Below, piece after piece: positions 1,133-30,164 of a stretch of DNA of 32,000 bases (the stretch's first letter is position 1; the number at the start of each line of letters is the position of its first letter). The position numbers and the translations under genes were made by a program. Where the stretch lies: positions 1,410,001 to 1,442,000 of the forward strand of contig NC_013849.1 of NCBI RefSeq assembly GCF_000025505.1, given 5' to 3'. The notes beneath the pieces are model-generated. The model was not told the origin of the DNA. It worked only from the letters and a program-made list of their open reading frames with translations, and made no database searches. The DNA is from Ferroglobus placidus DSM 10642. Its GTDB lineage: Archaea; Halobacteriota; Archaeoglobi; Archaeoglobales; Archaeoglobaceae.

Positions 1133-1133
1133 C

Positions 1134-2429: not shown

Positions 2430-2469
2430 ACAGCGTAAACGTTATACTACGAGGATAAAAACTTTCCGT

Positions 2470-5689: not shown

Positions 5690-5718
5690 TTAAGTTTTTC
5701 GAAGCTGTCATCTAAGGT

Positions 5719-6294: not shown

Positions 6295-6345
6295 TGAATT
6301 CAAAACTCTTAAAAAGTTTTTAATCCGGACGGTAAGTGTTTCTTG

Positions 6346-10331: not shown

Positions 10332-10498
10332 ATTTTAATGAGGGGATTCGAGGATATTTAAATCTTGATATTGGTCCTGATTCCCTTAAATAATGCGAAT
10401 GTTAGAACAACAATCCTCAACGTCTCATCTCCAAATGACCCAGACAGAGAGCTTCTTCTGTTTTTCTTGCAAAGTAGATGTGCTAAGAAGGTAAAAAA

Positions 10499-10505
10499 TT
10501 TATAT
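10499..10505 (+). promoter_or_regulatory. Archaeal TATA box (TTTATAT) with an A-rich upstream BRE-like stretch, serving the DUF2298 gene
   Basis: The sequence gtaaaaaaTTTATATcttaacg lies about 22-25 nt upstream of the in-frame GTG at 10527. This is the spacing expected for a leaderless transcript. Confidence 0.4.
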
Positions 10506-10526
10506 CTTAACGAAAAACTTTTCAAA

Positions 10527-12458
10527 GTGTTCGAAATCGTAGCTTTCCTGCTGGTTGTTGAGATAATAGGTTTCTCAGCTTACCCCCTCCTCAGAAAAGA
10601 GTTTGGGGAAGAGGCTTATTCTCTAAGCAAACCGTTTGGACTTGCAATTTTAACAGCTGTGGCTTTGTCTTTCTCTTTAGCAGGACTCAATTTTTTCCTC
10701 TCTTCACTTCTTGCTTTAATTTCTCTTGTGATTCTCGCAGTGATCAATCGGGATGGCTTTTACTTTGAAGGGGAAACTTTTAAAGAAGAGCTGGTCTTCT
10801 TAATTTCTTACTCCCTTTCTCTGCTTTACCTTTCACTCAAACCCGAAATTTACTTCGCTTACTCCGAAGACTTTACGGACTTCGCTTTTCTCAAATCCGT
10901 TTTACGTTTCGGAATTTTGAAGGACCCTTGGTTCGGAGGAGAGCAGATTTTTTACTACTTCTTCGGGCACGCTTTAGCGGCTTCTCTCATAAAGCTTTCG
11001 AGAGTTAAAGCTGAAGTCGGTTACAATCTGGCTGTGGCAGCCTATTACTCTCTTGCAGTAACGCTATCATACTCTCTCGGGAAAAGAACGACTAAAAAAG
11101 ACATTTACGGAATTCTTTCAGCTCTCTTCGTTTGCTTTGCAGGATTCTTCTCCGGATTTTTCCAGCTTGTCGCATTTCTCTTCAAAACACCGATTCTTGG
11201 TTATAAAGTCGCTAATACGACCCTTTTTCAATGGCTTCTCAATTTCGACTTTTCAGCAGCGACGAGAGTAATTGATGGGGCTGTTGTGTTTTACCCCTTC
11301 TTCACATTTCTTCAGGGGGATATGCATGCGCACTTCATGTCGATTCCATTTCAGCTTGCCATTCTTCTCTCATCTCTCTCCTTATACACCAGCTTTTCAT
11401 CGAAGAAGTTTGCAACGACGACTTTTCTCTTCACCTTTACCCTCGGAATTAACGCATGGTCGTTTGTATTGGCTTTTCTTCTCATCCCAATTCTCTTGCT
11501 TAAGAGTAAACGTTTTGCGATTCTTTCTGTTTTCTTGGCAGTTTTCATAACTTTGCTCATCCTTACTGGAATTTTGAAGTTCGTCGAGTCGAGAACCGAG
11601 TTTTTTGACTTTCTTCAGGTTTTTGCTCTCTTTTTAGCTTCCACGATCCTTTACACTGCGAAAAAATTAGATTGGAAAGAATTTCTTCTGATACTCTTCT
11701 TCATCCCTCTTGGCTTACTTTTAAACTTTCACTTGCTCTTTCTCTTCCCTCTTGCGTTTTTATTGCTGAGGGAGAAGAGCTTTGAGAACATCTTGCTCTT
11801 TGCTGGAACATTAACTATCCTTTTCTGCGAGCTTTTCTACTTCGACGACCCCCTCGGAAAGCCATTCGAAAGAATGAACACCGTCATGAAGCTTTACATC
11901 TCAGCTTGGATTTTCTGGGGAGTTGCTTCGGCAATTCATCTATCGAAGCTCGGAAGAAGTGCTTTAGCCGTTCTCGCCGTTTTCGCGTTCTCTCTACTTC
12001 ATCCCGTCGCATCCCTTATTGCCATGCCTAACAGCGAGTTGCTCGGAAATAGCGGCAAAGTCACTTTGGACGGAGCCGAGTGGTTGAAGGAAAAGCATTT
12101 AGAAGAGTACCTCGCCATAAAATGGCTTGAAAACAAAAGCGGAGTTGTTCTCGAAGCTCCGGGGGAGGCTTACACTTATTCTTCGAGAGTTTCGACTTTC
12201 ACCGGCTTGCCCACCGTGATTGGCTGGAGAACTCACGAAATCATGTGGGGAAGGAGTTGGGAGGAAGTGGAGGAAAGAATAAAAGAAGTGGACGAAATCT
12301 ACCTTAACGGGAGCTTGGAGCTGGCTAAGAAGTACGGAGTTAGATACGTGTTTTTCGGAGAAGTTGAAAGGATTAGGTACGATAAGAGCGAGCTCGACTA
12401 TCCTTGGCTAAAAGTTGTTTTTAAAAAAGGAAACGTCACGATTTACGAAGTTCCCTGA
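10527..12458 (+). CDS. DUF2298 (chlor_Arch_YYY-type) polytopic membrane protein, putative GT-C-like glycosyltransferase
   Basis: About 15 or more TM helices, then the conserved C-terminal block YTYSSRVSTFTGLPTVIGWRTHEIMWGR...KKYGVRYVFFGEVERIRY. The track start (TTG 10365) adds 54 non-hydrophobic codons upstream of a TATA box, so GTG 10527 (VFEIVAFLLVVEIIGFSAYPLL) is preferred. Confidence 0.7.
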   Translation: MFEIVAFLLVVEIIGFSAYPLLRKEFGEEAYSLSKPFGLAILTAVALSFSLAGLNFFLSSLLALISLVILAVINRDGFYFEGETFKEELVFLISYSLSLLYLSLKPEIYFAYSEDFTDFAFLKSVLRFGILKDPWFGGEQIFYYFFGHALAASLIKLSRVKAEVGYNLAVAAYYSLAVTLSYSLGKRTTKKDIYGILSALFVCFAGFFSGFFQLVAFLFKTPILGYKVANTTLFQWLLNFDFSAATRVIDGAVVFYPFFTFLQGDMHAHFMSIPFQLAILLSSLSLYTSFSSKKFATTTFLFTFTLGINAWSFVLAFLLIPILLLKSKRFAILSVFLAVFITLLILTGILKFVESRTEFFDFLQVFALFLASTILYTAKKLDWKEFLLILFFIPLGLLLNFHLLFLFPLAFLLLREKSFENILLFAGTLTILFCELFYFDDPLGKPFERMNTVMKLYISAWIFWGVASAIHLSKLGRSALAVLAVFAFSLLHPVASLIAMPNSELLGNSGKVTLDGAEWLKEKHLEEYLAIKWLENKSGVVLEAPGEAYTYSSRVSTFTGLPTVIGWRTHEIMWGRSWEEVEERIKEVDEIYLNGSLELAKKYGVRYVFFGEVERIRYDKSELDYPWLKVVFKKGNVTIYEVP

Positions 12459-12759
12459 GGCTCGAGCCGAAGAAAGCTGAGAGAATCGAGAGGATTAGCA
12501 GAAGAATTAAAGGAATTGCAGCCACCTCTGAAAACCTAACCCACGGCGGAAGCGAGGCTAAGAAAATCGCTGAAATTGCTGCGAAAGCAATTAAAGATAT
12601 CGAAATCGCTTTTAAGAGTTTTTCAGCAGCCAATCCTATTCCGGCGAAGGCTAAAATGAAGCCGACCCAGTGAAAGACAGAAATAACGAATCCGAAAGGG
12701 ATTAAAAGGTAAATTAGCTTTCTCACCAGCTCACCTCCTTGTAGTCGCAGTTTATCCAC
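12436..12759 (-). CDS. Small hypothetical membrane protein
   Basis: 107 aa with about three hydrophobic helices. No recognisable family. It overlaps both neighbours' ends. Confidence 0.4.
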   Translation of the reverse strand: MDKLRLQGGELVRKLIYLLIPFGFVISVFHWVGFILAFAGIGLAAEKLLKAISISLIAFAAISAIFLASLPPWVRFSEVAAIPLILLLILSILSAFFGSSLRELRKS

Positions 12760-14144
12760 ATCTCAAGCTGGTCGAAGTAGTGCTTCGAGGTAACTTTCCC
12801 CGAATTCCCACCCGGGATTACCGTGTATGCTTTTTCTCCTACCTCCACGATCATTCTAAAGCTGCTTCCCACTTGGGGACTTTCTTCAACTCTGAAGTTG
12901 TAGATCGTATATTCTGAGCCGTCCATCTGGTAGCTGGGGTAATTGAAAACTTTGAGCTTAACTCCGAAGGGATGCTCAATCTTAAGCCTGTTGTAGTCTC
13001 CGTAAACCTTCCAGCCTTCCCTTTCTATCTCCTCTGGAACCGTTGAAAACGATGTTTCCAGCCACTCTCTTTCCATCCACGTACCTTATCGGATACTTTC
13101 CTGCGGGATAGTAAGCTGTGCTTTTCTCGTCAGCAACCACGAGGTTTTGGGCGGGAACTCAGCCACTTCCCCTTGTAGAGGTATTTTCCACCTTTCCAAA
13201 CGTAGGCGTAGAAGTCTATGACATCAGCTCCAACGTTCGTGAATCCCCATGCTACGTGCTTGTTGTATCCTATTATCACGAACGGGATTCCGGGGAACGT
13301 CACACCTCTAACTTCGAAGTCTTTCGTTTTTAAGTGCATTTCATACCACACGGGTGGAGCTGTTAAAAGCAAGTGAGGGTCGTTGGCTAAAATCGGCTTT
13401 CCGCTCTCGGTAAACTTGCCGGAGATAACCCAGTTATTGCTTCCGATTCCTTCCAGATAACTTATACTTACATTCTCCACTTTTGCCGGAGATGAGTAGT
13501 TTTCGAGAACTTCGTAACCGTGACGAGCTTCGCTGGATACAATTCGAGAGCTTCTGGAAGCTTTCTCCTAATCTCCTCCCTCTTTAAATCCCAGAAGTTG
13601 CCAGTTAACCCCAAGCGATTTCTTTTGCTATCAACAGAGTATCTACAGGAGTCCACTTCTCCGGCTCGTAGTTCAAGAGAATGAACTCTATCGGCAAATT
13701 TCCCGAGTTTATGTAAGCGTTAACGCCTTCGCAGTAAGCGAGAATTGCATCTCTAACGCTTTTGTTCCTCTTCAAAACGTCCCAAGAGGCTTTCGCAGCA
13801 CTTTCGAAGTCCATTTCAACGTGAAACTTATCGCTCTCTAAGGTTTTCTCTCCAAAAATTTCGGAGAGCTGACCTTTCATGTACCTTCTGTGAAGATCCA
13901 TCTGGAAAAGCCGGTCTTTGGCTTGCAAATAGCCTACTGCAAAGAACAGAGCTTTTTCGTTTTCAGCGTAAATGTGCGGAACTCCGAACTCGTCGTAGTA
14001 GATTTCTACATTTCCGTAGGGTTTGTCCATCTTGATTTCATCTTTCCACAAGCTTCCGGAGAAGGGAGCAAAAGCGTTCAAGTACTTGCTCGTTGCAGCA
14101 ACGAACAGAACCAGGAGGAGCAGAGATAAGGCTGCGCGTTTCAT
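12723..14144 (-). pseudogene. Decayed penicillin amidase / peptidase S45 (Ntn-hydrolase) gene: at least 3 frameshifts plus a large internal deletion
   Basis: Four consecutive minus-strand ORFs in three different frames.
- 13605..14144: signal peptide plus alpha-subunit block FGVPHIYAENEKALFFAVGYLQAKDRLFQMDLHRR.
- 13468..13656: linker.
- 13130..13480: GSNNWVISGKFTESGKPILANDPHL, the Ser N-terminal nucleophile of the beta subunit.
- 12723..13076: C-terminal PGGNSGKVTSKHYFDQLEMW.
Together they span about 1.4 kb, versus about 2.2-2.5 kb for intact family members. Confidence 0.75.
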
Positions 14145-14181
14145 TAATTCGAGTATATTTTTAACTTTTTTAATTTTTTCG

Positions 14182-14526
14182 CTAAAATTTAATAGAATCT
14201 CTAAGTTCTTCGATCTTTCTCTCGAAAGCTTTTTCGGCTTCTTCGTAAACTTCGAGAAGTTTTTCTGCCAGCTCAGTTAAAGAGCTTTCTCCCCCCTTTT
14301 CTCCACCTCTTTTCGTCTCAACTATTCTCTTTCCGAGCTTTTCTTCCATCTTTTTTATATATCCCCAGACGTATCTGTAGGACATCTCCAATTCCTTAGA
14401 TGCTTTGGATATGCTACCGTGCTTTTTTATAGCTTTGAGAATTTCCGCTCCCCCCTTCCCCATTAAAAACTCTCCGTCCTTTTCTATCCATATTCTGAAC
14501 TTTAGCTCAATAATAGACATCACCAC
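14182..14526 (-). CDS. ModE-N-terminal-type winged-helix regulator (molybdate/tungstate-responsive family), lacking Mop/TOBE domains
   Basis: 114 aa. GKGGAEILKAIKKHGSISKASKELEMSYRYVWGYIKKMEEKLG matches the ModE N-domain HTH. It overlaps the tupC 3' end by 20 nt. Confidence 0.75.
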   Translation of the reverse strand: MVMSIIELKFRIWIEKDGEFLMGKGGAEILKAIKKHGSISKASKELEMSYRYVWGYIKKMEEKLGKRIVETKRGGEKGGESSLTELAEKLLEVYEEAEKAFERKIEELRDSIKF

Positions 14527-17324: not shown

Positions 17325-20258
17325 ATGACAGGAAACTGGCGCGCATTTAACGAAATTGAAAACGGTGAAATTACTGACGCTTCTTTTGTAGCGAACATAT
17401 GGAGAGTATACAAAGGCGACGCGGACATCGACGAGAGGTATAAAGATGCCAAGAAGTTTTTCGAGAGGACATTCATTTCAGAGGGATTAGAAAATGTGTT
17501 AAAGACAGCTATTGGAAGAGTTTTCGAAGGTAAAGGTGAACCGGTAATTTTGCTTCGAACAACCTTTGGAGGAGGAAAAACTCACACTCTAATAGCTATA
17601 TATCACGCTCTAAAGAACCCACAAACGATCTCAAAATATATCCAAGTACCTGAAAAACGTTTTTCACCCACGTTTGTTGCGTTTGACGGAAGAGAGTTAG
17701 ATTCTCACCGTTTAAAGGAATATTATGGAGCAAATAACTTGTGGCAATTCCTGATGAATGAAATTGCAAAAAAGAGCGGATTTAAAGAGTTTGAAAAAAT
17801 TTGCAGCGATTATTCGAACCCAAAGGAACCTCCAGGAAGTGAAGTGTTAAGAGAAGCATTTAGAAAACTTGAAGACTACGGTCATCCAGTCGTCTTTTTA
17901 CTCGATGAAGTCCCGGACTACATCAACAAATTGCAGTTAAAAGACGAAACTGAAGCTACAGCAGTTATACACTTTTTGGACTCCCTCGCTAACGCTGTAT
18001 CTCATTGCAAATACTCGCTCTTAGTTTTGGCAATACCCGAAATAAAAATGCTAACACAAATTAACGAAGAGATCGTAAGCAATCTGACTGAAAGAGTTGG
18101 TAGAGTTGCTATACCGAGAAACATCGTCGGGAAAAAAGATGCGGCTCACGTGTTAATACGTGCGTTAATCAAAAAAGTTGAAAGTGAGAGTCACAGAGAG
18201 ATTGACTCGCTCTACGAAGTTTACAAGAACAACACCAGGAGTTTTCCAGCGAGCATCTCTACAGCTGACTACCTCGAAAAGATGAGAGCTTATTATCCGT
18301 TCCATCCCCAATATATAGAAGTCCTGTACGACAAAATCGCCAGCCTTGAAACCTTTCAAAGCACGAGAGACATCTTAAGATTGACTGCTCACGTTTTACA
18401 CGTTCTTTGTAGAAAAGACCAGAGAAGGATGGTCTTTCTTTCCGACATAAACATGGCTGAAAAGAGCATAATAGACGAGTTCCTCGATAGGCACGGTTTT
18501 GCAAATCTTAGGCGAGCGATTGAAGTAGACCTTGAGGTTGTGAAAAAGTTAGATGAGGAGAACGTTAGACGAAATCTTCCAGCTATCTTTGTCCCGTTAT
18601 ACTCTTCTATAGCAGTTTACAGCGTAGCCGGTGAAGCTGCCTCGGTTAAGGATTTAACACTCGCAACAATAAAGCCTGGATTGCATCCAAACTACGTGTT
18701 GGGTGCATTGGAGCAGATGATGGAGTCAGATGTAGCTTACGTTTACAAGCTGACGGTAGACGGTGAAACGAAATACACTATTAAAGAGAGAATAAGTTGG
18801 GTTAGACTTGTTGATATAAAATCAAGAGACGTCAGCAATGAAGATGCGAGACAAGAGTTCGACAGTAGGTTTAATGAAGCTTTGAGAAGGTGGGGACGAA
18901 GTATATTTTCGATAGTCTCGCTTGCGAAATCTCCAAGGGATGTTAAAGATGATGAGATTTTGAAGCTCGTATTCTTGGATCCAAACGTAGTTAGAGACGA
19001 AGAAGAAACTCTGAATTTCTTTGCGATCTATTTTGATCCGGCTAAACAAGAACTCAGGAAGTTCAGGAATTCTGTTGTGTTTGCATTACCGGACCAAAGA
19101 GTATACTCGAAGAGTTTAGAAATTGCAAAGAAAATAATTGCTGCTCTGAGAATCAGGGAAGCTAAAGAAACTTACGGATTATCAGAAGAGGACATTGAGG
19201 AGTTAACAAAGCAGATCAATAAATGGAGGGAAGAACTAAAAGAGCGTGCAGCAGCAATTTACAGCAGAGTGGCGTATCCAATAGGCGGAAAAAATGGCGG
19301 AATCCGATTTGAAATTAAAACTGTAAATCACACTAATCCGGTTGAAGCTGCGGCAAAACTTCTTGAAAGAGAAGAGAAGGTGATAAGAGACATATCTGAA
19401 ACGTATTTGTTCAGGTTAGTTAACGAGTATTATGCAGCGATGGGGGATGTTGAATTAAAAATTAAAGAACTTTCTGAGTTTTTTGCAAGGGATCCAGAAA
19501 AACCGTATTTGCTGAAAGCAGCATCAATAGTTTCCGATAAAATTGCCGAACTTGTCGAAAACGGGAAAGTCGTAGTTTTGAAGGGTGGGAAAGTTTATGC
19601 ATATCAGAGAGTTAAAGTCGAGGAAGACGATGTCGTCATTCCAGGGAAGATTGCTGAGCAAAAAGGATTGTGCGTTGAATACGATGGAAAATTCATACCT
19701 CCGCCACCCTCTGAATTAGCTAAGCCAGTATGGGACGAAAAAAGCAGAAAGTGGGTTGAAGGAGAAGTAACAGTGGAAGAAAAGGCTGAAGTTGAGGAAA
19801 GGGGAGAGGAGGTCGAGGAAAAAGTTGAGATTGAAAAACCTAAGAAATTGAAGTTAGAAAATATAAACCTGCCAGAACTAATTGACGCCATTAAAGGAGA
19901 AAGTGGGACGTTTTTAGGTTTTGAAATCAGTGGAGAAGCAACGAAGGATGTGCAGAATACTATTAACTTCTTGAAGTCTTTGAGTGTTCAGTTGAAGAAG
20001 CTCGAACCAGAATTTTCTATATCCGCTGAAGTTGGAGACGGAGACAACATAGATCTCAGATTGACTGGAGATGTGAAAGTTAGCGGAATTAAAGAGGTCC
20101 TCACAATGCTCGAAAGACTTGGCTGCAGAAACATTAGGTATGAGATCGTAATCAGCGAAGCAAAAGCCGAAGACTTGCTCGAAAGCTTGGATGTAAAATT
20201 GTTAAGAGAGAAGTATCGAAAAGAGAAATTCAGCGTGAGTGCAAGGGTGAAAGAATGA
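17325..20258 (+). CDS. DUF499-family P-loop ATPase (COG1483; BrxC/PglY-related, anti-phage-associated)
   Basis: 977 aa from ATG 17325 (track TTG at 17322). The N-terminal block FVANIWRVYKGDA...YKDAKKFFERTFISEGLENVL...ILLRTTFGGGKTHTLIAIYHAL (Walker A) and LLDEVPDY (Walker B) are characteristic of DUF499. Confidence 0.85.
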   Translation: MTGNWRAFNEIENGEITDASFVANIWRVYKGDADIDERYKDAKKFFERTFISEGLENVLKTAIGRVFEGKGEPVILLRTTFGGGKTHTLIAIYHALKNPQTISKYIQVPEKRFSPTFVAFDGRELDSHRLKEYYGANNLWQFLMNEIAKKSGFKEFEKICSDYSNPKEPPGSEVLREAFRKLEDYGHPVVFLLDEVPDYINKLQLKDETEATAVIHFLDSLANAVSHCKYSLLVLAIPEIKMLTQINEEIVSNLTERVGRVAIPRNIVGKKDAAHVLIRALIKKVESESHREIDSLYEVYKNNTRSFPASISTADYLEKMRAYYPFHPQYIEVLYDKIASLETFQSTRDILRLTAHVLHVLCRKDQRRMVFLSDINMAEKSIIDEFLDRHGFANLRRAIEVDLEVVKKLDEENVRRNLPAIFVPLYSSIAVYSVAGEAASVKDLTLATIKPGLHPNYVLGALEQMMESDVAYVYKLTVDGETKYTIKERISWVRLVDIKSRDVSNEDARQEFDSRFNEALRRWGRSIFSIVSLAKSPRDVKDDEILKLVFLDPNVVRDEEETLNFFAIYFDPAKQELRKFRNSVVFALPDQRVYSKSLEIAKKIIAALRIREAKETYGLSEEDIEELTKQINKWREELKERAAAIYSRVAYPIGGKNGGIRFEIKTVNHTNPVEAAAKLLEREEKVIRDISETYLFRLVNEYYAAMGDVELKIKELSEFFARDPEKPYLLKAASIVSDKIAELVENGKVVVLKGGKVYAYQRVKVEEDDVVIPGKIAEQKGLCVEYDGKFIPPPPSELAKPVWDEKSRKWVEGEVTVEEKAEVEERGEEVEEKVEIEKPKKLKLENINLPELIDAIKGESGTFLGFEISGEATKDVQNTINFLKSLSVQLKKLEPEFSISAEVGDGDNIDLRLTGDVKVSGIKEVLTMLERLGCRNIRYEIVISEAKAEDLLESLDVKLLREKYRKEKFSVSARVKE

Positions 20259-20284
20259 ACATCTACTAAAAATGCTCTATTGTT

Positions 20285-22903
20285 TTATTCGTTTATGAAC
20301 TCGTCGAGCGTTTTGATTCTATCTTTCTTTATTCTTATCCCGTTCGGTCTGATTGACAGCATTAGCAATCCTTGAATGGCCATTTTTTCTTCATCTTCCG
20401 GCTCGCCTTCCGCAAGGATTAGCTCGAGGAATTTCGTTGTAACTTCGTCGAGTTTATATCCATGATCCTCAAGAACTTTAATCGCCTCGTGGGGTCCGTT
20501 CGATAAGTATGCTTTGAGACTCGAAGCAATCGCGTCTACCAACCACTTCCCTTCTCCTTTTATCTCCGTAAGAGGCTTTATCTTGTAAGCTTTCGTGCCG
20601 TCCTTTTTCTTTGAAGCTGACGTGTATTTTTCGATGAATTCTTCGTGATCGTAGTTTAGTCCGTAGGCGAGGTAGCGAAGGGAGTCGTATTCTGGTTCGC
20701 CGTAAACTACCCTCGCCATGAGATACATCGCCGTTGCCTGATCGAGAGGGGCTGAAACAAGCTTTTCGAGAACGAGTTTCGAAACTTCGCTCGAAGCAAA
20801 TTGCAAGATTTCTTCGAGATCAACTTTCCGCCCGTCGTACGTGTAGAGGGGCCAGTGCTTCCCGACAACTTCGAAAGCAGCACCCATCCCCATGAGGATA
20901 GCGTCGGAGTAACTCAGGTTGTAGTTAATCGTCCTTTCCACTTCCTTTTCGATCGCTTTTCTGACTTCAGCTCTCAGATTAGCGTCCCAAATCCCTTCAG
21001 TCTCCTTCTCCTTCGGTTTTAACCCGAGGACGAGCATAGTCTTTACGGCGGCTTTTCCAACTATGTGAATACTCCTCGGCTGTTCACTGGCAAATCCCCA
21101 GACGGCGAAGGGGATAAAGCCAGCGTCTAAGGCGGCGTTGAGCATGACTTTCAATCCTTTGAGGCTCCTGTGAGCATACATGAAGACCGCTATTCCATCT
21201 GGCTTTAGCGAAGCTTTTACAAGTTCCAGAACTTCTTTAAGGCTCGACTCGAACCATTTCTCGTCTCTCTTTCTGGTTTTGTTTACTACTATTTCATCCT
21301 CTTTCGGAGTCAGCTCAGTGGAGAACGCCTCTGGATAAAGGTGTCCTATGCTCCTCTTGTGCCAAACGTAGAAGAAGTCAGCGAGCTCCGAATACTGGAC
21401 GTTCGCGTAATAGGGAGGATCTGTTACAACGTAATCGAACTCTCCGAGTTCGAGATACAAACTTGGATCTTTAGCGTTGCCGAGAACGACTTTGACGTCT
21501 CCTTTCGCATCTTTTAGAAGGTTTACGATCTTTTTGAGGGCTGAAACCACTCCTACATTACTTAGCAATGCCCATTCCAATAAACAGTTTTTAGATAATA
21601 AATCTCCTTCAGCAAAGTCTTGGCCCATTCTATAAGCGTGCCGATTAAAAGTATCTCTAATTGACCCTTTGTTATAGGAATCCCAAGAAGTTAAGACTGA
21701 GTTGTAATCAAGCAGCTTTCCGTGGGCTAAAGCCAGATACGTCACGACAGCCTTTGCGTATTCTTCGTCTTCTCCCTCGTTTAAGATTTTTTCGTAAGCT
21801 TCTCTGATGAGTTTAACGATTGTTGCATGAGTCAAAAGCTGTCGAGCGTTGAAGAGCTTGTAGAACTTGTTTATACTCCTCAAAAGAACTTCTCTCGTTT
21901 TATCACCTTCAGGAATTTCCTCTGTGGGGATTAAATCTTTTTCAACGAATTCCTGCCACCTTTCTCTCAAGACCTCCCCAGCTCTCTTAGTAGCTTCAAC
22001 CATTTCGTCTGTTGGCTCCACGAATCTTCCATCGGAAAGTTTGACAGCTGCTAATATTGCAGGATGGTGTCCGTACATTTCTTCCTTCTCCCACCTGTCC
22101 ATTTCCATCCTGTATTGAGCAGACATCTCTTTGGAGGTTAACGTGTGCCCGTCAGGACAGTTCAAACTCTTAACCCCAGTTCCGACTTTATCACCCTCTC
22201 CTTTCACAACCCTAACAACTGGTCTCTCTCCGTCATAATCAAGTTTCAAAGCATACTTGTTCTCTTTAGACAAGATGGGGTGAGAAATTGCTGGAACGAG
22301 TTTTCCGCAGCGACATCTGTAAACCCTGATCCAGATGTAGTTTGCTGGTTCACCTTCTGGGTGCCTCGGGTAGTATTCTGCGAGCTCTTCTCTAACTCTT
22401 TCCAGCAACCACCTGCCCCACTTTTCGACATCTTTAACGAGCTTTTCTCTATACTTTAGGGGGTATTCGAGCGTTGCTTTTAGCAAAATGTAAGCTATCG
22501 GGTTGTATTCGACAGCCACGACCTCCTTAAATCCGAGTCTAAGAGCCTCGAAGGGAATTGATCCACCTCCGGCGAAAACGTCAAGTAGTCTCGCACTCTT
22601 AACGTCCGCATGCTCAAAAACCCAGTCTAAGTTTGGAGAGTAATTGTAAGCTGGTCTGTCGGGGCGTTTGTTTCTGTAAAGTAGGGAGACTGCCTGTTTA
22701 AACTCTTGAAGGAACTTTTTGTCCGGCTCTTTCTCAACTTTAACGGTTGAAGCAGCTATTGTAACTCTCGAGCCTATTAGGGGGCGGCGAGCCCACCAGA
22801 GGTGAAGGTAAAACATTGGTGGGGAAATAACTGCCCGTTCTCTAATCGATTCTTCAGAAGTCTCGAACGTCGGGAAGTAGTATTTGATAAGCCTTTCTGA
22901 CAT
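20285..22903 (-). CDS. DUF1156-family DNA methyltransferase with internal Zn-ribbon (COG1743)
   Basis: 872 aa. DUF1156 hallmark HLWWARRPL, SAM motif I LLDVFAGGGSIPFEA, Cys-ribbon YRCRCGK...LNCPDGH, catalytic motif IV VVTDPPYYANVQY. Confidence 0.9.
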   Translation of the reverse strand: MSERLIKYYFPTFETSEESIRERAVISPPMFYLHLWWARRPLIGSRVTIAASTVKVEKEPDKKFLQEFKQAVSLLYRNKRPDRPAYNYSPNLDWVFEHADVKSARLLDVFAGGGSIPFEALRLGFKEVVAVEYNPIAYILLKATLEYPLKYREKLVKDVEKWGRWLLERVREELAEYYPRHPEGEPANYIWIRVYRCRCGKLVPAISHPILSKENKYALKLDYDGERPVVRVVKGEGDKVGTGVKSLNCPDGHTLTSKEMSAQYRMEMDRWEKEEMYGHHPAILAAVKLSDGRFVEPTDEMVEATKRAGEVLRERWQEFVEKDLIPTEEIPEGDKTREVLLRSINKFYKLFNARQLLTHATIVKLIREAYEKILNEGEDEEYAKAVVTYLALAHGKLLDYNSVLTSWDSYNKGSIRDTFNRHAYRMGQDFAEGDLLSKNCLLEWALLSNVGVVSALKKIVNLLKDAKGDVKVVLGNAKDPSLYLELGEFDYVVTDPPYYANVQYSELADFFYVWHKRSIGHLYPEAFSTELTPKEDEIVVNKTRKRDEKWFESSLKEVLELVKASLKPDGIAVFMYAHRSLKGLKVMLNAALDAGFIPFAVWGFASEQPRSIHIVGKAAVKTMLVLGLKPKEKETEGIWDANLRAEVRKAIEKEVERTINYNLSYSDAILMGMGAAFEVVGKHWPLYTYDGRKVDLEEILQFASSEVSKLVLEKLVSAPLDQATAMYLMARVVYGEPEYDSLRYLAYGLNYDHEEFIEKYTSASKKKDGTKAYKIKPLTEIKGEGKWLVDAIASSLKAYLSNGPHEAIKVLEDHGYKLDEVTTKFLELILAEGEPEDEEKMAIQGLLMLSIRPNGIRIKKDRIKTLDEFINE

Positions 22904-22930: not shown

Positions 22931-24073
22931 TTAAAGACTCTTTAAAAAGCTTATGAGGTCGACACTCTTTAACTGCTTGACTTTCGTGAGTATTTTCAGC
23001 TTGCTACTATTTGCAACGAGCCTTTTGTTTGATACGTATTTCAGCACGTCTTCTTCCAGCGCAATTCTCACCCTTTCAGTTTCTATACCAATCTGCTCGT
23101 AGTTGAATAGCTTTTGAGCAGCCATTCTTTTCTTCTTGGATTGGGAAGTTAAAGTTTTGAGAGGGACTGCCGTATCTTCCGGATAAATTTCCTCAACTTC
23201 CTTTAACCCAACTTTCTGATAAGCGTAATCGTCTTTGTTGAACAGCCTTAAGTCGCTAATTTTTTCCTCTACTCCGTAATCCCTCGTCCCAAGGTGATTG
23301 TCTGCGATTGCATCGAGACCCAAACCGAAAGACAGAACATCTTGAGCTAAGATCTCACTGCTCTTTTTGCTCGGCTTTCCGATGTTAACGTTTACGCTGT
23401 AAATAAAAGCGTCAACGTCTTTTTGGTGGAGCAGGTTCTGTATCTGAGATATCTGCTGGTAATGAGTAAAGGGTGTTCGTCCAGCAAAATCCAAGCAAAA
23501 AGCTTTGATACCATGCTCAAAATACAGATCAAGGAGTTCGGAAATTTTGACTGGCGGCAGAGTTATAGGAATCAAACCCATTATCGGTTTTCTCTGCTTG
23601 GACCCCTCAGCTTTTTCAAGAAAACTCTCTACTATCGAGAAATACCTCTCAATGTCCTTTACGGTTGCGACTTTGTGAACTCTCTCGACAGTAGGAGGAA
23701 CGTAAAAATCGAAGACGCTCTCGGTATCTCTGATGAAATCCAATTCGGAATCGGTAACTTCAAACGTTTTTAACGCGGGAACGAAAATAATCGGTGTGCT
23801 TTTAGAAGGGACATTGTGTAAAGCTCTCTTGATGTCCTTATTCAGTCTGTCTCTGCTTTCAACCTTTCCCGACACGAGTTCGATTAGTTTCTCCTTAGTG
23901 AATGTCTTGTAAACTTCTCCAACGTATTCCTCCCAGTTCAGCTTAATATCTGACTTAAAGTATCTGAGGTTAATAGCTTTGATCGGAGTTTTGAAGCTTT
24001 TACCTCTGATTTTAACCTTCTTGTGAGAATAGAACGTCTTCTCGTCTTCTCTTACAACTTCAATTTTTAACAT
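22931..24073 (-). CDS. Hypothetical 380-aa protein, first gene of the operon with the DUF1156 methylase
   Basis: A long ORF with protein-like composition, ending 27 nt upstream of the methylase start on the same strand. It shows regular alternation of hydrophobic beta-like and amphipathic helix-like segments (PIIFVPAL / VFDFYVPP / PIMGLIPITL / IKAFCLDFAG / AFIYSVNVN / LDAIADNH). No family recognised. Confidence 0.75.
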   Translation of the reverse strand: MLKIEVVREDEKTFYSHKKVKIRGKSFKTPIKAINLRYFKSDIKLNWEEYVGEVYKTFTKEKLIELVSGKVESRDRLNKDIKRALHNVPSKSTPIIFVPALKTFEVTDSELDFIRDTESVFDFYVPPTVERVHKVATVKDIERYFSIVESFLEKAEGSKQRKPIMGLIPITLPPVKISELLDLYFEHGIKAFCLDFAGRTPFTHYQQISQIQNLLHQKDVDAFIYSVNVNIGKPSKKSSEILAQDVLSFGLGLDAIADNHLGTRDYGVEEKISDLRLFNKDDYAYQKVGLKEVEEIYPEDTAVPLKTLTSQSKKKRMAAQKLFNYEQIGIETERVRIALEEDVLKYVSNKRLVANSSKLKILTKVKQLKSVDLISFLKSL

Positions 24074-24112
24074 CGAAATGTTTTATAACGACAACCCTTA
24101 AAACTTTTCCTA

Positions 24113-24706
24113 ATGGCTATTGAAGCGGATCATTTGAAACATCTGAGCCCAATACAAGCTCTTATTCTATTGCTGCTTGACAGCGAAAACGCTCAACCAG
24201 TTAAAGGAAGAACTTGGCTTCAGAAGGAGATGTTCCTAATATTAAGCAATGCTGGCAAAGAAATTGAAGAAGAGGCACAGTTCGAACCTCACCACTTTGG
24301 ACCCTACAGCGAGGTCGTGGAGTCAGAATTAGCGAATCTAAAATTACTTGGACTTGTGGACGAAAATAAAGAGATACGGATAACTAAGGCTGGTAAAAAG
24401 ATTGCAGCAGAACTGAGAAAATACGTCAGCCCGAAATTTCTTGAGTTCATATCCCAAGTGAAAAGAGAACTAAATGATCTTACCGAAGACGAGTTGCTCG
24501 CCTATATATACTTTACTTTCCCCGAAATGACGAGCGAATCGAAAGCCTTAGAGAGAATTTTAAAGAAGAGGAAGTGGCTTGCTTTATCGCTCTATCGAAA
24601 AGGAAAAGTCAGCTTATCTAAAGCATCACAAATCGCTGGCGTAAGTGTTAGCGAGTTCTCTAAATTTTTAAGAAGTAAAAATATTGGGGTCTCTCTGGGG
24701 TGGTAA
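24113..24706 (+). CDS. Composite antitoxin: N-terminal Panacea/DUF4065-like plus winged-helix region fused to a C-terminal UPF0175 (COG2886) antitoxin domain
   Basis: 197 aa. N-terminal part: WLQKEMFLIL...FEPHHFGPYSEVVESEL (LQK..F / F.p..yGPy pattern of the SocA/Panacea domain) and LKLLGLVDENKEIRITKAGKKI (wing). C-terminal part: ALSLYRKGKVSLSKASQIAGVSVSEFSKFLRSKNIGVSL, a typical UPF0175 domain. Confidence 0.65.
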   Translation: MAIEADHLKHLSPIQALILLLLDSENAQPVKGRTWLQKEMFLILSNAGKEIEEEAQFEPHHFGPYSEVVESELANLKLLGLVDENKEIRITKAGKKIAAELRKYVSPKFLEFISQVKRELNDLTEDELLAYIYFTFPEMTSESKALERILKKRKWLALSLYRKGKVSLSKASQIAGVSVSEFSKFLRSKNIGVSLGW

Positions 24707-25199
24707 CATCCCGGAGAGCTTAATTTTGGATACAAGCGTGCTTATTGCGTTTTATTCAGAGCTGGCTCGTCCGGAATTGCTGTTATCTCTCCACGATCAT
24801 GGTTTTCGCTTGTATGTCCCTAAAGCCGTGTATGAGGAATTTATGGATGACGTAAACTTCAAACATTTAGAGACTCACGTAAAAAACGGATATTATACGA
24901 TACTCGGGAATATTCCCGAAAACGATGTTTACAGACTTAAACTGAAGTTCCCAAGTCTTGGAGATGGCGAAATTGAAGTTATCTGGTGGGGGCTAAAGTT
25001 TGAGAACTGTTTTTGCGTGTTGGACGATAAAAAAGCTAACAAGAGCGCAAAAAGCATGGGCTTGAAAGTAACTGGAACAATAGGTATTTTGCGGATTTTG
25101 GCTGAAATGGGGGTTATAAGTGAGAGTGAAAAGCGAAAATTGTGTGTAGAATTAATTGAGCGCGGATTTCGATTTCCGAAAGAGAAGTGTTTCGAGTAG
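24684..25199 (+). CDS. PIN-domain toxin, DUF3368/COG2405 type
   Basis: LILDTSVLIAF, YEEF, GDGEIEVIWWG, CVLDDKKANKSAKSMGLKVTGTIGILRIL match the COG2405 PIN family that partners UPF0175. The start is ambiguous: TTG 24684 (23-nt overlap with the antitoxin) or TTG 24726. Confidence 0.8.
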   Translation: MGSLWGGNIPESLILDTSVLIAFYSELARPELLLSLHDHGFRLYVPKAVYEEFMDDVNFKHLETHVKNGYYTILGNIPENDVYRLKLKFPSLGDGEIEVIWWGLKFENCFCVLDDKKANKSAKSMGLKVTGTIGILRILAEMGVISESEKRKLCVELIERGFRFPKEKCFE

Positions 25200-25210
25200 T
25201 AATTTATTTA

Positions 25211-25246
25211 TCGATCAGATTTTGATTAATACATAATGCTGATCGA
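25211..25246 (+). promoter_or_regulatory. 8-bp inverted repeat TCGATCAG / CTGATCGA bracketing the start of the nuclease gene, just downstream of a TATA box
   Basis: Arms at 25211-25218 and 25239-25246. The TATA-like TTTATTTA at 25203-25210 lies about 27 nt upstream of ATG 25236. Confidence 0.3.
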
Positions 25247-26912
25247 AGACCACATTAAGAATCTGACAAAGCAAGAAGGTTGTGCTAAAGCAGCATCTGA
25301 AATTTTAAGTAGAACAGCACACTTGATAAAAGCAAGAAGTGTCGCTTACGGAGCTGCTCATTGTATTTTCAAGGCTCGTCTCGTCGAAGCGTTTGGGGCG
25401 AGTGGTTTCTTTCAGAGCATAATCCCCGGAAAAGGTAATCTCGTTCACCAAATCCTCGCTATTGCTTTTCCTCGAGCGTTCGTCGATAAAATAAAAAGAA
25501 ATTTGCAAGAACTCAAATACTACGTTGACGAAGCTGAAAAACTCTTAGAAGAATATGGAATGATTTCTGATCCTTCTCCAAATCTAATCTCTACAGCAAA
25601 AAATGAGTCTCTGACAATGCTAAAACACGCTTTAAAAGTCATTCCAGAAATAGCGGAAAAAATAGGATTGGAACTCGAGAGAGCGAGAGTTTACGCAGAA
25701 ATGCAGTTGATGAGTTACAAACTTCACGTTTGGGGTGTAATCGACGCACTCGTCGAAGATAGGATTAATAGAAAAGCAATCGTGATTGACTGGAAGACTG
25801 GGCATCAACTTGAAAGTAAGGCTGCACAAATAAGTGATCCAGACATAGCCCAGGTTTGCTGCTACGCGTTACTTGAAGCTGATAGACTCGAATTTGAAGA
25901 TCCAAGAAAACCAGTTTTAGAAGGAGAGATCGTTCCCTTAATTATCAGACCCCGCGGAAATATACCAGTGGCGAGTATAAGCCCAGTATACGAAACTATG
26001 AAGAGAAGGACAACCTTAGAGGAATACCTCAATAACATAATCTTGGCAGCAGAGCACCTGACTCTCGTCTTAAGTAACGTAAGAAGACTTATAGGACCAA
26101 CTTTCGAGAATATATGTAAATTTAAAACTCGGCAAGGCAGAAGAGCAAGCGCTTTTCGATATACTCCCTACAACCTGCCAAAAGGAAACCCAAAGACCAA
26201 TAGTTACCGATGCAAAATATGTGGATTAACTGAGGAATGTCTTTTCTACATAGGAAGCTACGAAGAACCCGAAGAGATTGATAGACTCGCTTGGAGGTCG
26301 AGATACGCAATTTATGCGATAAGAGAGAACGCACTAATGCCCTACAAGGAAATCCACGAAAAAATAAGTTACTATAATTTCGACGTTAGGAGTTTTGAGC
26401 AAGGAGAAACTTTCACACTCGAAAGTGGAAACAGAATAGACGTGTTTAGCGATGCTGAAGCATCTGAAGACGGAATAATCCTTAGAAGAGAAGTTAGAGA
26501 AAGAGAAATAAGAGAGGAGAGGATAATTTCGGTAAGAGAAGGTAGGCCAGTGGCAGTTTTTTTCTACGAGGACGTTAAAAGCCCCTTACTAAGGTTGAGC
26601 TTCGTCGGTAGGGTTGACGAATTTCAGCAGGAGGAAGATGAAGTCTCTATTCTTGTAAGCGCACCGAACATCCCCTCAAGGCTACACCATATCCTCTTCA
26701 AGTTTTACCTTGAAAATTGGAGAGATCTGACACTCAGCATACTGGCTGTCGAGACAAACGTAGATTTGACACAAATGGAACTCAGGGCGATAGACGCTTT
26801 TCAGAGAGGAACAAAAAGGATGAAAGAAAAACTCTATAATCTTGAAGAGAACTTAGAAAATCTCAAAAATGAAGCTCTTGCCATACTCTTTGGTTCTCTA
26901 CCTTTGAGGTGA
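25236..26912 (+). CDS. Cas4/RecB-family PD-(D/E)XK nuclease with Fe-S Cys cluster, plus a C-terminal beta-barrel/stalk-like region (N-terminal half of a split Dna2-like protein)
   Basis: 558 aa. Motif order: AAHC...R, GNLVHQIL, E(MQL), GVIDALVED, IVIDWKTG (D-x-K), QVCCYALL (QhxxY), then CKICGLTEEC (C-x2-C-x5-C). The remaining roughly 210 aa are strand-rich (ETFTLESGNRIDVF...RPVAVFFYED...LSFVGRVDEF...VSILVSAP) and end in a helical tail. Confidence 0.8.
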   Translation: MLIEDHIKNLTKQEGCAKAASEILSRTAHLIKARSVAYGAAHCIFKARLVEAFGASGFFQSIIPGKGNLVHQILAIAFPRAFVDKIKRNLQELKYYVDEAEKLLEEYGMISDPSPNLISTAKNESLTMLKHALKVIPEIAEKIGLELERARVYAEMQLMSYKLHVWGVIDALVEDRINRKAIVIDWKTGHQLESKAAQISDPDIAQVCCYALLEADRLEFEDPRKPVLEGEIVPLIIRPRGNIPVASISPVYETMKRRTTLEEYLNNIILAAEHLTLVLSNVRRLIGPTFENICKFKTRQGRRASAFRYTPYNLPKGNPKTNSYRCKICGLTEECLFYIGSYEEPEEIDRLAWRSRYAIYAIRENALMPYKEIHEKISYYNFDVRSFEQGETFTLESGNRIDVFSDAEASEDGIILRREVREREIREERIISVREGRPVAVFFYEDVKSPLLRLSFVGRVDEFQQEEDEVSILVSAPNIPSRLHHILFKFYLENWRDLTLSILAVETNVDLTQMELRAIDAFQRGTKRMKEKLYNLEENLENLKNEALAILFGSLPLR

Positions 26913-26916
26913 GCGT

Positions 26917-28428
26917 ATGGCAATCTACTATCTTGATGATGGCTTGAAAGAAGCTTTTAGATTGGCAAAAAGAAAAGAAAAGTGGGCACTACTTGAATCT
27001 CAGAAAAAAGCTACAGAACTCATGAAAAAGACTGTTGATGGTGAACTTAGCCTTGCAGCAGTTCAAGGACCTCCGGGGACAGGCAAAACAAGTGTTGTCG
27101 AAGCTTTTGCCAAGGAAGAGTTACCAGATTTCGTAACACAATCAGAAAACGAGCTAATTTTGTATATTGCTCCAACGAATCACCTCGTTTATGAAGCTTT
27201 CAAGAGAATTTCAGCCCAATTAATCAAAAAAGGATTTGATATCCAGTCTCTCTTGAGCGTTGTGCGAGTATACGGTTCGAAAATTAAACCTATGAAGGAA
27301 AAAGAGGTGATAATCGGAGATAAAAAACTCGAGAGAGACGATCTAAATAGACTCGTGAGCAACGTAGATAACAATGTCCGGATAATTTTTGCGACAGAAT
27401 TCCAGAGAGTTTCAAGTAGACTTGAAGTTGAACCAAAAAGGATACACATAGTTGCTGACGAGGCAAGTAAGTCTCCATATTTCAGAGTTTTTCTACCTTT
27501 AGCTGAAAAAATAGCTAAGAATCCAGAAGAATACTATCCTTACACTCTCCTCGTTCTTGGAGATCCACAACAGGCAATTACAGTTCCAGAGGAGTTTACT
27601 ATAATGGATGTCCCGCTTCTCATGAAATTAACAGAGAGAGTTCTCAAAGAGAACGACTTGAAAAAAGATTGTTGGGTTATGCTCGACACGACCTTCAGAC
27701 TACCACGTCCTTCAGAAGACCCTATAAGCCACGGATTTTATAGAGGAAAACTACATGCGCACTATACCTCAAGAGAACGATTAGAGATTATTAAAGACTC
27801 GATATTAGACAACATCAGCAGAATTACTTCTGCGCTTGACAAAGCGGGTGTTCGAGCAACTTCACTTGACGTTAAAAAGATCGTTGACGGAATAGAGGAG
27901 GCTATAACTTCTAACATTCCGATAGTCGTTGTAAAAACTCGTCCTTTTAAGAGTGGAGACACTTACGACGAAGAGCGCGTTAAAAAGGCATTTATAATTT
28001 CCTCTATTTTTCAATTGGCATCTCACTTTTCTGGATATAGTTTCAGCGTAACTACTACTGCTCCATACTGTGATATCGTTGATTCAATAGCATTTAAATT
28101 TCACAGAAGATTTCACAACTTTGGATCGATACGAGCACCGAGGGCAGTTACCGTGCAATCACTTATAGGGGGAGAGAGCGATGTCATTGTGGCTCCACTC
28201 GGTAAAGAGTGGTTACCAAGTGAGATTCGTTACCACCCTTCGGAAGAATTTACAACAATATACGCAAGAGAACCGGAATTGCTTAACGTTCAAATGAGCA
28301 GACATCGATCACTTATGGTTGTAATTGGCAATACTGACAGATTAATGAACCAGAGAGAAAGAAGGATTCAAAGGACTGTAGAAAGGTTGGAAGAGCTTGA
28401 AGGTAAAGGAACTTTAATTATCTCTTAG
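26917..28428 (+). CDS. SF1B helicase, Dna2/Upf1-like (AAA_11/AAA_12 type)
   Basis: 503 aa. Motifs: I VQGPPGTGKTS; Ia YIAPTNHLV; II IVADEASKS; III LVLGDPQQ; IV LDTTFRLPRPSEDPISHGFYRGKL; V VTVQSLIGGESDVIV; VI LLNVQMSRHRSLMVVIGN. A GAGGTGA Shine-Dalgarno sequence spans the upstream stop, and the gap is 4 nt. Confidence 0.9.
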   Translation: MAIYYLDDGLKEAFRLAKRKEKWALLESQKKATELMKKTVDGELSLAAVQGPPGTGKTSVVEAFAKEELPDFVTQSENELILYIAPTNHLVYEAFKRISAQLIKKGFDIQSLLSVVRVYGSKIKPMKEKEVIIGDKKLERDDLNRLVSNVDNNVRIIFATEFQRVSSRLEVEPKRIHIVADEASKSPYFRVFLPLAEKIAKNPEEYYPYTLLVLGDPQQAITVPEEFTIMDVPLLMKLTERVLKENDLKKDCWVMLDTTFRLPRPSEDPISHGFYRGKLHAHYTSRERLEIIKDSILDNISRITSALDKAGVRATSLDVKKIVDGIEEAITSNIPIVVVKTRPFKSGDTYDEERVKKAFIISSIFQLASHFSGYSFSVTTTAPYCDIVDSIAFKFHRRFHNFGSIRAPRAVTVQSLIGGESDVIVAPLGKEWLPSEIRYHPSEEFTTIYAREPELLNVQMSRHRSLMVVIGNTDRLMNQRERRIQRTVERLEELEGKGTLIIS

Positions 28429-29832: not shown

Positions 29833-30066
29833 CGTGACTGTCTGGCAAATAAATCTGCGAACTTTTCGAGTTCGTGTATTCTCAGGAACATCCCTCTCTG
29901 CATGTTCGAGTATGCACTCTCGGCATATATAGTACTTTTGGAAAATTTATATAAATTCATGAAAAATGCTCTAAATCTACAAACCTTAATTTCGCTTAAA
30001 TTTGGCAAATTAGCTCTCAAAATCACCAATTGGTTGAAAACAGGTAGGATTTACTCGAAATTTTGA

Positions 30067-30139
30067 TGGGTCCGCCCGGATTCGAACCGGGGACCTCCTG
30101 CGTGTGAGGCAGGCGTCATAACCACTAGACCACGGACCC
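30067..30139 (-). tRNA. tRNA-Val (anticodon CAC)
   Basis: The minus strand reads GGGTCCGTGGTCTAGTGGTTATGACGCCTGCCTCACACGCAGGAGGTCCCCGGTTCGAATCCGGGCGGACCCA. It folds as a cloverleaf: 7-bp acceptor GGGTCCG/CGGACCC, anticodon stem CCTGC/GCAGG with loop CTCACAC, T arm CCCGG-TTCGAAT-CCGGG, discriminator A. No CCA is encoded. Confidence 0.92.
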
Positions 30140-30164
30140 AGCAGTACTGTGTTTTACTCTTAGC

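Follow-up and report, generated by a model that had tools for sequence, protein, structure and literature searches.

The window analyzed here is a 32-kb stretch of the chromosome of the archaeon Ferroglobus placidus DSM 10642, and it contains a defense island extending from ~17.0 to 29.6 kb. Inside the island lie a gene for a DUF499-family ATPase (positions 17325 to 20258, plus strand) and a gene for a DUF1156-type DNA methylase (20285 to 22903, minus strand), together with genes for an iron-sulfur (Fe-S) PD-(D/E)XK nuclease (25236 to 26912, plus strand), a superfamily 1B (SF1B) helicase (26917 to 28428, plus strand), and a second, small DNA methyltransferase (28418 to 29544, minus strand). 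The ATPase, the DUF1156 methylase, and the helicase are exact matches to ADC65797.1, ADC65798.1, and ADC65803.1, respectively. A first-pass annotation, made from the letters alone, had singled out the ATPase and the DUF1156 methylase as a module related to the bacteriophage exclusion (BREX) systems. That placement holds: judged by its profile matches, the pair is a member of the family variously called Hma (the operon name used by PADLOC), DUF499-centered BREX-related (BR), or MANTIS (Gao_RL). We make the case here, toward which we lean, that all five genes act as one system in which the usual effector has been exchanged for a Dna2-like nuclease-helicase pair.

The ATPase, 977 aa long when counted from the ATG (its open reading frame [ORF] opens at 17322/17325 and ends at 20258), is predicted to be an HmaC/MtsA-like AAA+ protein of the ORC/Cdc6 type. 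Hidden Markov model (HMM) searches bore out its earlier assignment to DUF499 (BrxC-like), with PADLOC matches to HmaC (E = 7e-66) and DUF499 (E = 1.1e-22). The match to NCBIfam DUF499_antiphage (E = 3.2e-28, 98 bits) was far under the equivalog cutoff of 1200, and the Pfam DUF499 profile, PF04465, failed to match the window ATPase even at E≤10. PF04465 does match homologs of the protein, among them P0031 (45% identical; 1.7e-33) and the ATPase of locus L027 (30% identical; 4.7e-32). Both the Walker A (GGGKTH) and Walker B (LLDE) motifs are intact and conserved. Homologs form 13 clusters that are 37 to 100% identical to the window protein at E≤1e-206, after which scores drop to E values of ~1e-50; beyond this break lie canonical and HEPN-fused DUF499 proteins that are ~25% identical to it. 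By these measures, the window ATPase is classified as a divergent DUF499 family member within a small archaeal subclade. One Logan assembly has the F. placidus ATPase interrupted, with separate calls for P0023 (760 aa) and P0246 (222 aa) on a single 3,757-nt contig; the split could be an assembly error or real variation.

The DUF1156 protein (872 aa) is a putative N6-adenine-type DNA methyltransferase resembling HmaB and MtsC. It matched Pfam DUF1156 above the gathering score of 24 (E = 1e-8, 35.6 bits), as the first-pass annotation had supposed, and it matched the PADLOC profiles HmaB (E = 4.5e-54) and MTase_II (E = 8.4e-66). The alignment of homologs shows no variation in motif I (FAGGGS) or motif IV (DPPY), and a target-recognition insert lies between the two. 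The Zn ribbon attributed to this protein proved to be present in part: the insert holds a knuckle of the form CxC...Cx3H (C196-x-C198 ... C249-x3-H253), but this is degenerate, with only C249 invariant and with Ser in place of the first two Cys residues in two relatives. As first described, the ATPase and methylase genes converge, and their stop codons face each other across a spacer of 26 bp (20259 to 20284) that can be read directly from the sequence.

The nuclease (558 aa) corresponds approximately to the N-terminal half of Dna2, that is, the nuclease plus the barrel and stalk. It matched Pfam PDDEXK_1 (9.4e-10), and its alignment has as invariant residues D170, WK186-187 (preceded by an acidic residue, either D or E), C294, and C326-x2-C329-x5-C335, a pattern that we read as the Fe-S signature of the Cas4/AddB/Dna2 nucleases. 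An AlphaFold2 (AF2) model of the protein (predicted local distance difference test [pLDDT] score, 86; predicted template modeling [pTM] score, 0.89) had mouse Dna2 (5eax_A) as its best Foldseek match in the PDB (E = 6.6e-9, probability 1.0, 567 aligned columns, with a TMq of only 0.44), followed by the SETX stalk, AddB, MGME1, and Cas4. The helicase (503 aa) is of the Dna2/Upf1 type; it matched Pfam AAA_11 (5.4e-11) and AAA_12 (3.6e-5), carries the UniRef name “DNA2/NAM7 helicase,” gave a weak match to PADLOC Nhi (1.4e-4), and retains intact motifs I, II, III, and VI (GPPGTGKTS, DEASK, GDPQQA, and NVQxSRHR). Together, the two genes encode a Dna2-like nuclease-helicase split over two polypeptides. 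The first-pass label of “Dna2-like nuclease-helicase” for these neighbors was therefore apt, both ORFs lying where they had been placed. Sequence searches of the PDB with the ATPase, the DUF1156 profile, the nuclease profile, and the helicase gave no significant match to solved structures. In an exhaustive search, the nuclease family proved to be rare, with 77 clusters among 1.84 billion representatives.

The small methyltransferase had been overlooked in the first reading, which left that description of the architecture one conserved gene short. Its motifs I and IV read DPFVGSGT and TSPPF, and the intact 375-aa form matches Pfam N6_N4_Mtase (1.3e-8). In the window the gene is split by a frameshift into ORFs of 282 and 110 aa, as its alignment with single-ORF homologs shows. 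The frame depends on a homopolymer at positions 28719 to 28725 (gene on the minus strand), which is T7 on the plus strand and thus A7 in the gene; with T8, the intact protein is encoded. One added A restores the 375-aa product, and that exact sequence is present in independent Logan assemblies: contigs L029 (ERR15087784) and L030 (SRR071437) are 99.97 to 99.98% identical to the window and have a gap relative to it only at this tract, where they read T8 and the window reads T7. Logan data contain the split products as well. Either the reference has a homopolymer error here, or the tract varies in length; in the latter case, the A7/A8 tract might serve as an on/off switch (phase variation) of the second methylase. 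We considered the frameshift as proof of decay and rejected that view, given the intact allele in two other read sets.

The five genes recur together in relatives. Five loci on long contigs (L005, L006, and L009 from Joint Genome Institute [JGI] metagenomes, L007 from a Bathyarchaeota metagenome-assembled genome [MAG], and L008 from the European Nucleotide Archive [ENA]) share a single order: ATPase (plus), DUF1156 methylase (minus), a divergent gap of 51 to 83 bp, nuclease (plus), helicase (plus), and small methylase (minus). Protein sizes in these loci are similar, at 550 to 586 aa for the PDDEXK_1 nuclease, 492 to 529 aa for the AAA_11/AAA_12 helicase, and 346 to 369 aa for the small methylase; across the subclade loci the nuclease ranges from 550 to 630 aa and the second methylase from ~350 to 375 aa. 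The small methylase was found in every cassette, and the DUF1156 methylase is the most conserved cassette gene (59 to 77% identity). All subclade loci with enough context (L005 to L009 and L014) hold the same five genes as the window and no Snf2 helicase. Tail-to-tail orientation of the ATPase and methylase genes is likewise a conserved trait, as both are convergent in six of the six other complete cassettes of closer relatives (L005 to L009 and L014), the two genes being up to 46 bp apart or overlapping by as much as 17 bp; in the most distant cassette, L027, the two are codirectional. That cassette keeps all five genes at 30 to 52% identity in a changed order and orientation, and the persistence of linkage at such distances despite rearrangement argues for selection on linkage rather than for inherited synteny.

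Counting outward from the ATPase-methylase pair, all seven complete subclade pairs outside the window (L005 to L009, L014, and L027) adjoin the nuclease-helicase pair. A second survey began with the nuclease, and so carried no bias toward DUF499, and mapped loci by tblastn; in 6 of 9 informative loci (L010, L011, L013, L014, L015, and L027), it found the subclade DUF1156 gene directly upstream of the nuclease gene. A catalogue of neighborhoods, as had been proposed in the first-pass annotation, thus links the Dna2-like pair to the DUF499-DUF1156 pairs of this subclade; the 380-aa gene that precedes the methylase in the window shows no such association (see below). Hosts of the cassette are members of the Archaeoglobales and a Bathyarchaeota MAG, plus a Thermoprotei MAG that is represented by one short partial nuclease match lacking context. 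When representative genomes were scanned with the nuclease profile, the Bathyarchaeota MAG was the only one recovered, and for that reason the evidence from gene context is mostly metagenomic. In two cassettes (L005, positions 7956 to 9617, and L006, positions 6763 to 8424), the gene directly preceding the ATPase gene is of the GmrSD type (type IV restriction), an arrangement that echoes the reported association of GmrSD with BREX (PMC12839542).

The companions expected of this family are missing. We scanned most window ORFs of at least 80 aa, including all plausible genes, against Pfam, PADLOC, and NCBIfam and obtained no matches to Swi2/Snf2 helicase, Helicase_C, HmaA, DUF3780, or PglZ; iSTAND and HEPN domains were also absent from these scans. 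Among the island ORFs, Pfam and PADLOC gave no match to DUF3780 or phospholipase D (PLD) nucleases and none at E≤0.01 to PglZ, BrxA, BrxB, BrxC, or BrxL. The absence of the canonical DUF3780 protein and helicase noted in the first reading was thus upheld, and it extends to relatives, as SNF2, Helicase_C, and HmaA had no match in L005 to L009 and L027. The SF1B (AAA_11/AAA_12) protein was the only helicase detected among the scanned cassette ORFs, and the intergenic gaps of L005 to L009 leave no room for an extra gene such as MtsB.

The nuclease-helicase pair also occurs in other company. In L012 (positions 2626 to 7071) and L028 (positions 10001 to 14451), the nuclease, helicase, and small methylase form a trio with no DUF499 or DUF1156 gene in the visible context (2.6 kb upstream and 2 kb downstream in L012; 10 kb upstream and ~5 kb downstream in L028). 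Both trios are embedded among other defense genes, which are a SIR2-like gene and a type IIG fragment in L012 and an Lhr-like helicase, an NgoFVII/PLD enzyme, and an Eco57I-type methylase in L028. In L026, a canonical-type DUF1156>DUF499 pair lies 2.2 kb away from the trio; the products of this DUF1156>DUF499 pair are only 28 to 36% identical to those of the window, and an AAA_15/21 gene pair stands between it and the trio. Finally, in L018 to L023, a nuclease-helicase pair that is ~30% identical follows a DndC-like 3′-phosphoadenosine-5′-phosphosulfate (PAPS) reductase gene (PADLOC DndC, 3e-28 to 4e-31) and is accompanied by no methylase. This operon (L018, positions 319 to 5041; L023, positions 4550 to 9301; L019 to L022 are nearly identical) encodes a PAPS reductase of 407 to 408 aa, a Dna2-N-like nuclease of 634 to 651 aa, and an SF1B helicase of 484 to 528 aa, and it may be a phosphorothioation-type modification-restriction system with an effector of the same family. 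This partnership suggests that the nuclease-helicase pair behaves as a portable restriction effector that becomes attached to different DNA modification genes.

Between the DUF1156 methylase and nuclease genes of the window lies a segment (22931 to 25199) that fills the position occupied elsewhere by the divergent promoter gap of 51 to 83 bp. Its first gene (22931 to 24073, minus strand) encodes a 380-aa protein with 100% identity to Ferp_1652 from F. placidus DSM 10642, and the DUF1156 methylase gene is now 27 bp downstream of this co-oriented gene. The second (24113 to 24706, plus strand) encodes a 197-aa protein with an Abi_alpha/DarG-C-like N-terminal region and a UPF0175 antitoxin-like C terminus (Pfam UPF0175, 4.6e-10; PADLOC PDC-M19A, 6.7e-14, DarG, 4.4e-7, and PDC-S70, 1.6e-6). 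The third (24684 to 25199, plus strand) encodes a 171-aa PIN-like protein (Pfam DUF3368, 9e-8; PADLOC PDC-S70, 1.9e-17). By these matches, the second and third genes correspond to the PADLOC candidate system PDC-S70. The 380-aa protein had no match in Pfam, PADLOC, or NCBIfam and has only 22 homologs, all from archaea where the source is named. In four of the four other loci examined, its gene adjoins a pair encoding a UPF0175 protein of ~195 aa and a DUF3368/PIN protein of ~166 aa, and in those four loci it is never beside DUF499 or DUF1156. Since its homologs keep to the UPF0175 and DUF3368 genes, the gene is absent from all other cassettes, and the segment fills a gap found elsewhere, we conclude that the three genes are a separate module, lying outside the cassette proper and inserted into its divergent gap only in F. 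placidus. Its earlier description as a companion of the methylase has accordingly been abandoned. The protein, the one product of suitable length for a type 3 or BREX component, was also considered as a missing PglZ, iSTAND, or DUF3780 equivalent; this was rejected on the basis of the HMM results and its UPF0175-DUF3368 neighborhoods.

Copies of the module were located at L001 (5288 to 7624), L002 (4565 to 6852), L003 (293 to 2580), and L004 (8870 to 11179), and in L002 and L004 it lies within type I restriction-modification (R-M) islands. The family-less protein has 380 to 395 aa in these copies and has D195, D245, D254, H260, and D300 as invariant residues; as a partner of a PDC-S70-like pair it appears to be undescribed. 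Its AF2 model (pLDDT, 67) is TIM barrel-like, and the top Foldseek matches were tRNA-guanine transglycosylases (TGT) (E = 1.8e-5, with a TM score of only 0.40), a resemblance that we treat as a lead and not as a finding. On the nuclease side of the module, a TATA-like element, TTTATTTATC (25203 to 25212, plus strand), lies ~25 to 30 nt upstream of the nuclease ATG, and in aligned intergenic regions TATTTAT or TATTTAA occurs at the same distance upstream of the nuclease gene in L005, L008, and L011. We infer that TTTATTTATC is a retained remnant of the ancestral divergent promoter gap, with a putative promoter role. A search for direct repeats or target-site duplications around the inserted module and around the island gave only short matches at chance level.

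Outside the island, the region from ~0.5 to 12.5 kb holds housekeeping genes (RNase HII, SRP54, aIF2-gamma, Hjc, and a YYY domain membrane protein), after which penicillin amidase fragments and an ATP-binding cassette (ABC) transporter occupy the window up to 16.8 kb. Three to four short ORFs in a row at 12436 to 14144 (minus strand; 107, 117, 116, and 179 aa) match consecutive segments of penicillin amidase (PF01804) and look like a fragmented pseudogene. A PIN_9 domain protein is encoded between the aIF2-gamma and Hjc genes (8722 to 9138, minus strand), outside the island and apparently in a housekeeping context. The right-hand edge of the island is marked by a tRNA-Val(CAC) gene detected by ARAGORN (30065 to 30140, minus strand), which is context and not part of the system; no integrase or flanking direct repeat was found at this boundary. 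Beyond 30.2 kb lie a glycosyltransferase gene and a uridine kinase-like gene.

The first-pass description of the pair as experimentally uncharacterized and without an established mechanism is out of date. In 2020, a COG1743>DUF499>Swi2/Snf2 helicase-nuclease operon was predicted to be a restriction system (PMC7641849), HmaA of Halomonas has since been tested (PMC11232893), and DUF499-centered BR types 1 to 3 have been catalogued, all with a Swi2/Snf2 helicase, to which type 2 adds DUF3780 and type 3 adds PglZ and iSTAND (PMC12839542). MANTIS/Gao_RL corresponds to type 2 BR, and its mechanism was reported in a preprint by Shaw et al. in September 2026 (bioRxiv 10.64898/2026.09.23.753747). According to that work, the system has two ATPases; the AAA+ protein MtsA, together with MtsB, which is required for methylation, loads the methylase MtsC in an ATP-dependent manner, MtsC hemimethylates asymmetric 6-bp sites, and MtsABC then directs the PLD-SF2 (superfamily 2) effector MtsD (bioRxiv 10.64898/2026.09.23.753747).

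Building on the gene content, motifs, fold similarity, and conserved linkage described above, we can outline the activities and the coupling that a single five-gene BR-like system would entail, and we favor such a system by a modest degree. The ATPase-methylase pair would mark and recognize DNA and hand over to the split Dna2-like effector, and the small methylase would protect. The DUF499 ATPase would place the DUF1156 methylase on DNA at the expense of ATP, much as MtsA loads MtsC, and the methylase would mark host DNA at short, probably asymmetric sites by means of its DPPY center and variable recognition insert. At unmodified sites on incoming DNA, the ATPase-methylase complex would instead engage the effector, and the two-protein machine of Fe-S nuclease and SF1B helicase could then thread the DNA and degrade it from nicks or ends. 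The small methylase, which stays linked to the nuclease-helicase pair even where DUF499 and DUF1156 are absent, would most likely provide a second protective mark and so act as the antidote to the effector. In evolutionary terms, the effector of an ancestral BR-type system would have been exchanged, and in F. placidus a foreign three-gene module with its own divergent promoter would have landed in the promoter gap of ~50 to 80 bp between the methylase and nuclease genes. Defense genes are likewise embedded in Halomonas Hma loci, and about two-thirds of hma loci have such insertions (PMC11232893).

Several observations weigh against a single system. The sample is small, comprising about a dozen lineages that are mostly represented by metagenomic contigs, some of them cut at the cassette, and the pattern-based locus search recovers mainly close relatives. 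There is no equivalent of MtsB/DUF3780, although methylation in MANTIS depends on MtsB. If real, the frameshifted state of the small methylase gene in the window is a poor fit to an essential antidote role, and the occurrence of the trio without DUF499 or DUF1156 in L012 and L028 indicates that the trio may be self-sufficient. This last point is at the heart of a competing account, which we regard as possible though clearly less probable, namely, that two independent systems lie side by side: an R-M-like trio of nuclease, SF1B helicase, and small methylase and, next to it, a helicase-less DUF499-DUF1156 pair acting as an ATP-dependent epigenetic marker, a BREX-like replication blocker, or a regulator or backup of the trio. 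Adjacency would then reflect clustering in defense islands and joint horizontal transfer. The position of the L026 trio, 2.2 kb away from a canonical-type DUF1156>DUF499 pair, is in keeping with this account, as is the partnership of the nuclease-helicase pair with a DndC-like gene in the absence of a methylase or DUF499. So are the results of the Halomonas study, in which HmaA alone defended against T4, no effect of HmaB was detected, and the authors raised independent roles of HmaB and HmaC as a possibility (PMC11232893). Against this account, seven of seven complete subclade pairs outside the window adjoin the nuclease-helicase pair, at 30 to 77% identity, in two archaeal phyla, and through the rearrangement seen in L027. 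Moreover, all BR/Hma/MANTIS systems described to date require a nuclease effector, and these loci contain no alternative one; the tight methylase-nuclease gaps of 51 to 83 bp are consistent with shared divergent control.

It is also conceivable, but very improbable, that the F. placidus copy is a decaying remnant that has lost its Snf2 helicase, has suffered an insertion and a frameshift, and has no current defense function. The three-gene insertion between the methylase and nuclease genes and the split small methylase would suit such a remnant, and the degraded penicillin amidase gene indicates that this genome tolerates pseudogenes. The architecture without Snf2 is common to all relatives, however, so its absence is not a loss specific to F. 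placidus. The ATPase, DUF1156 methylase, nuclease, and helicase retain all of their catalytic motifs, the insertion preserves the TATA-like element of the nuclease gene and leaves the methylase gene downstream of a co-oriented gene, and two independent read sets carry an unbroken small methylase gene.

Going one step beyond the preferred reading of a single five-gene system, we tentatively propose, with somewhat less conviction than for that system itself, that the cassette is an undescribed fourth DUF499-centered BREX-related architecture. Confined to a few mostly thermophilic archaeal lineages, it would have a split Fe-S Dna2-like pair and a second methylase in place of the Swi2/Snf2 helicase, the pair being a portable restriction effector that also joins a lone small methylase or a DndC-like enzyme. 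If this is true, a machine for processing single-stranded DNA (ssDNA) ends in replication and repair has been recruited as the executioner of epigenetic self/nonself discrimination. The mechanisms of BREX-related systems are now under close study, including the question of how the ATPase-methylase recognition complex communicates with its effector, and a variant with a wholly different effector would mean that the recognition and modification half is modular, giving a comparative handle on the coupling step: a two-protein Dna2-type nuclease-helicase that depends on ssDNA ends could be set against the double-stranded DNA (dsDNA)-translocating SF2-nuclease fusion of known systems. The nuclease-helicase pair found with a DndC-like gene or a lone methylase would also define a small, previously unnamed family of archaeal restriction effectors. 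The components and the ATPase-methylase logic are already known, and the system, as recognized by comparative genomics, is rare. The analysis also corrects the first reading, in that the 380-aa gene belongs elsewhere and the family is no longer uncharacterized. F. placidus is a cultured hyperthermophile, which makes methylome sequencing and biochemistry with thermostable proteins feasible; a limited look through the literature for methylome or defense assay data on this organism returned none.

Compared with DUF499-centered BR/Hma systems, the F. placidus cassette shares the pairing of a DUF499 ORC/Cdc6-type AAA+ ATPase with a DUF1156-headed DPPY methylase bearing a recognition insert and the defense island setting; the family as a whole is abundant in archaea, and its loci tend to be interrupted by other defense genes. 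It differs in that their core Swi2/Snf2 helicase, usually fused to a PD-(D/E)XK or HKD nuclease, is missing, as are DUF3780 (type 2), PglZ and iSTAND (type 3), and HEPN fusions; since the defining SF2 helicase is lacking, we have not placed the five-gene system in BR types 1 to 3. In place of such a helicase, the cassette carries a Dna2-like Fe-S nuclease encoded on its own, an SF1B helicase, and a second, small methylase. Its ATPase and methylase genes converge rather than forming one operon, and the window ATPase, from a divergent subclade, escapes direct detection by Pfam DUF499. As far as we searched, a split Dna2-like effector replacing Swi2/Snf2, a second methylase, and a convergent layout are not part of the published BR/Hma/MANTIS classification. 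The supplements of the BR catalogue do not mention Ferroglobus or Ferp, and SF1, Dna2, UvrD, and Upf1 appear in its text only in one item of the reference list (PMC12839542).

MANTIS provides the only worked-out mechanism for a DUF499-DUF1156-type pair. It needs MtsB (named DUF3870 in the preprint and DUF3780 in PMC12839542), a protein missing from the cassette, and its MtsD is a dimeric PLD nuclease fused to a dsDNA-translocating SF2 motor, whereas the putative effector here consists of a PD-(D/E)XK/Fe-S nuclease and an SF1B helicase in two proteins, of a type that acts on ssDNA ends in Dna2; the extra methylase is a further difference. The likeness to eukaryotic and archaeal Dna2 lies in the succession of an Fe-S PD-(D/E)XK nuclease with barrel and stalk and an Upf1-type SF1B helicase. 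Nhi is a Dna2-like enzyme that reportedly serves as an antiviral effector, and it works alone, without a modification gene. Unlike both Dna2 and Nhi, the effector proposed here is encoded by two genes inside a methylase-containing cassette. The trio of L012 and L028, with separate genes for a methylase, a nuclease, and a helicase-like motor, follows the same logic as the R.H.M systems of the CglI/NgoAVII type.

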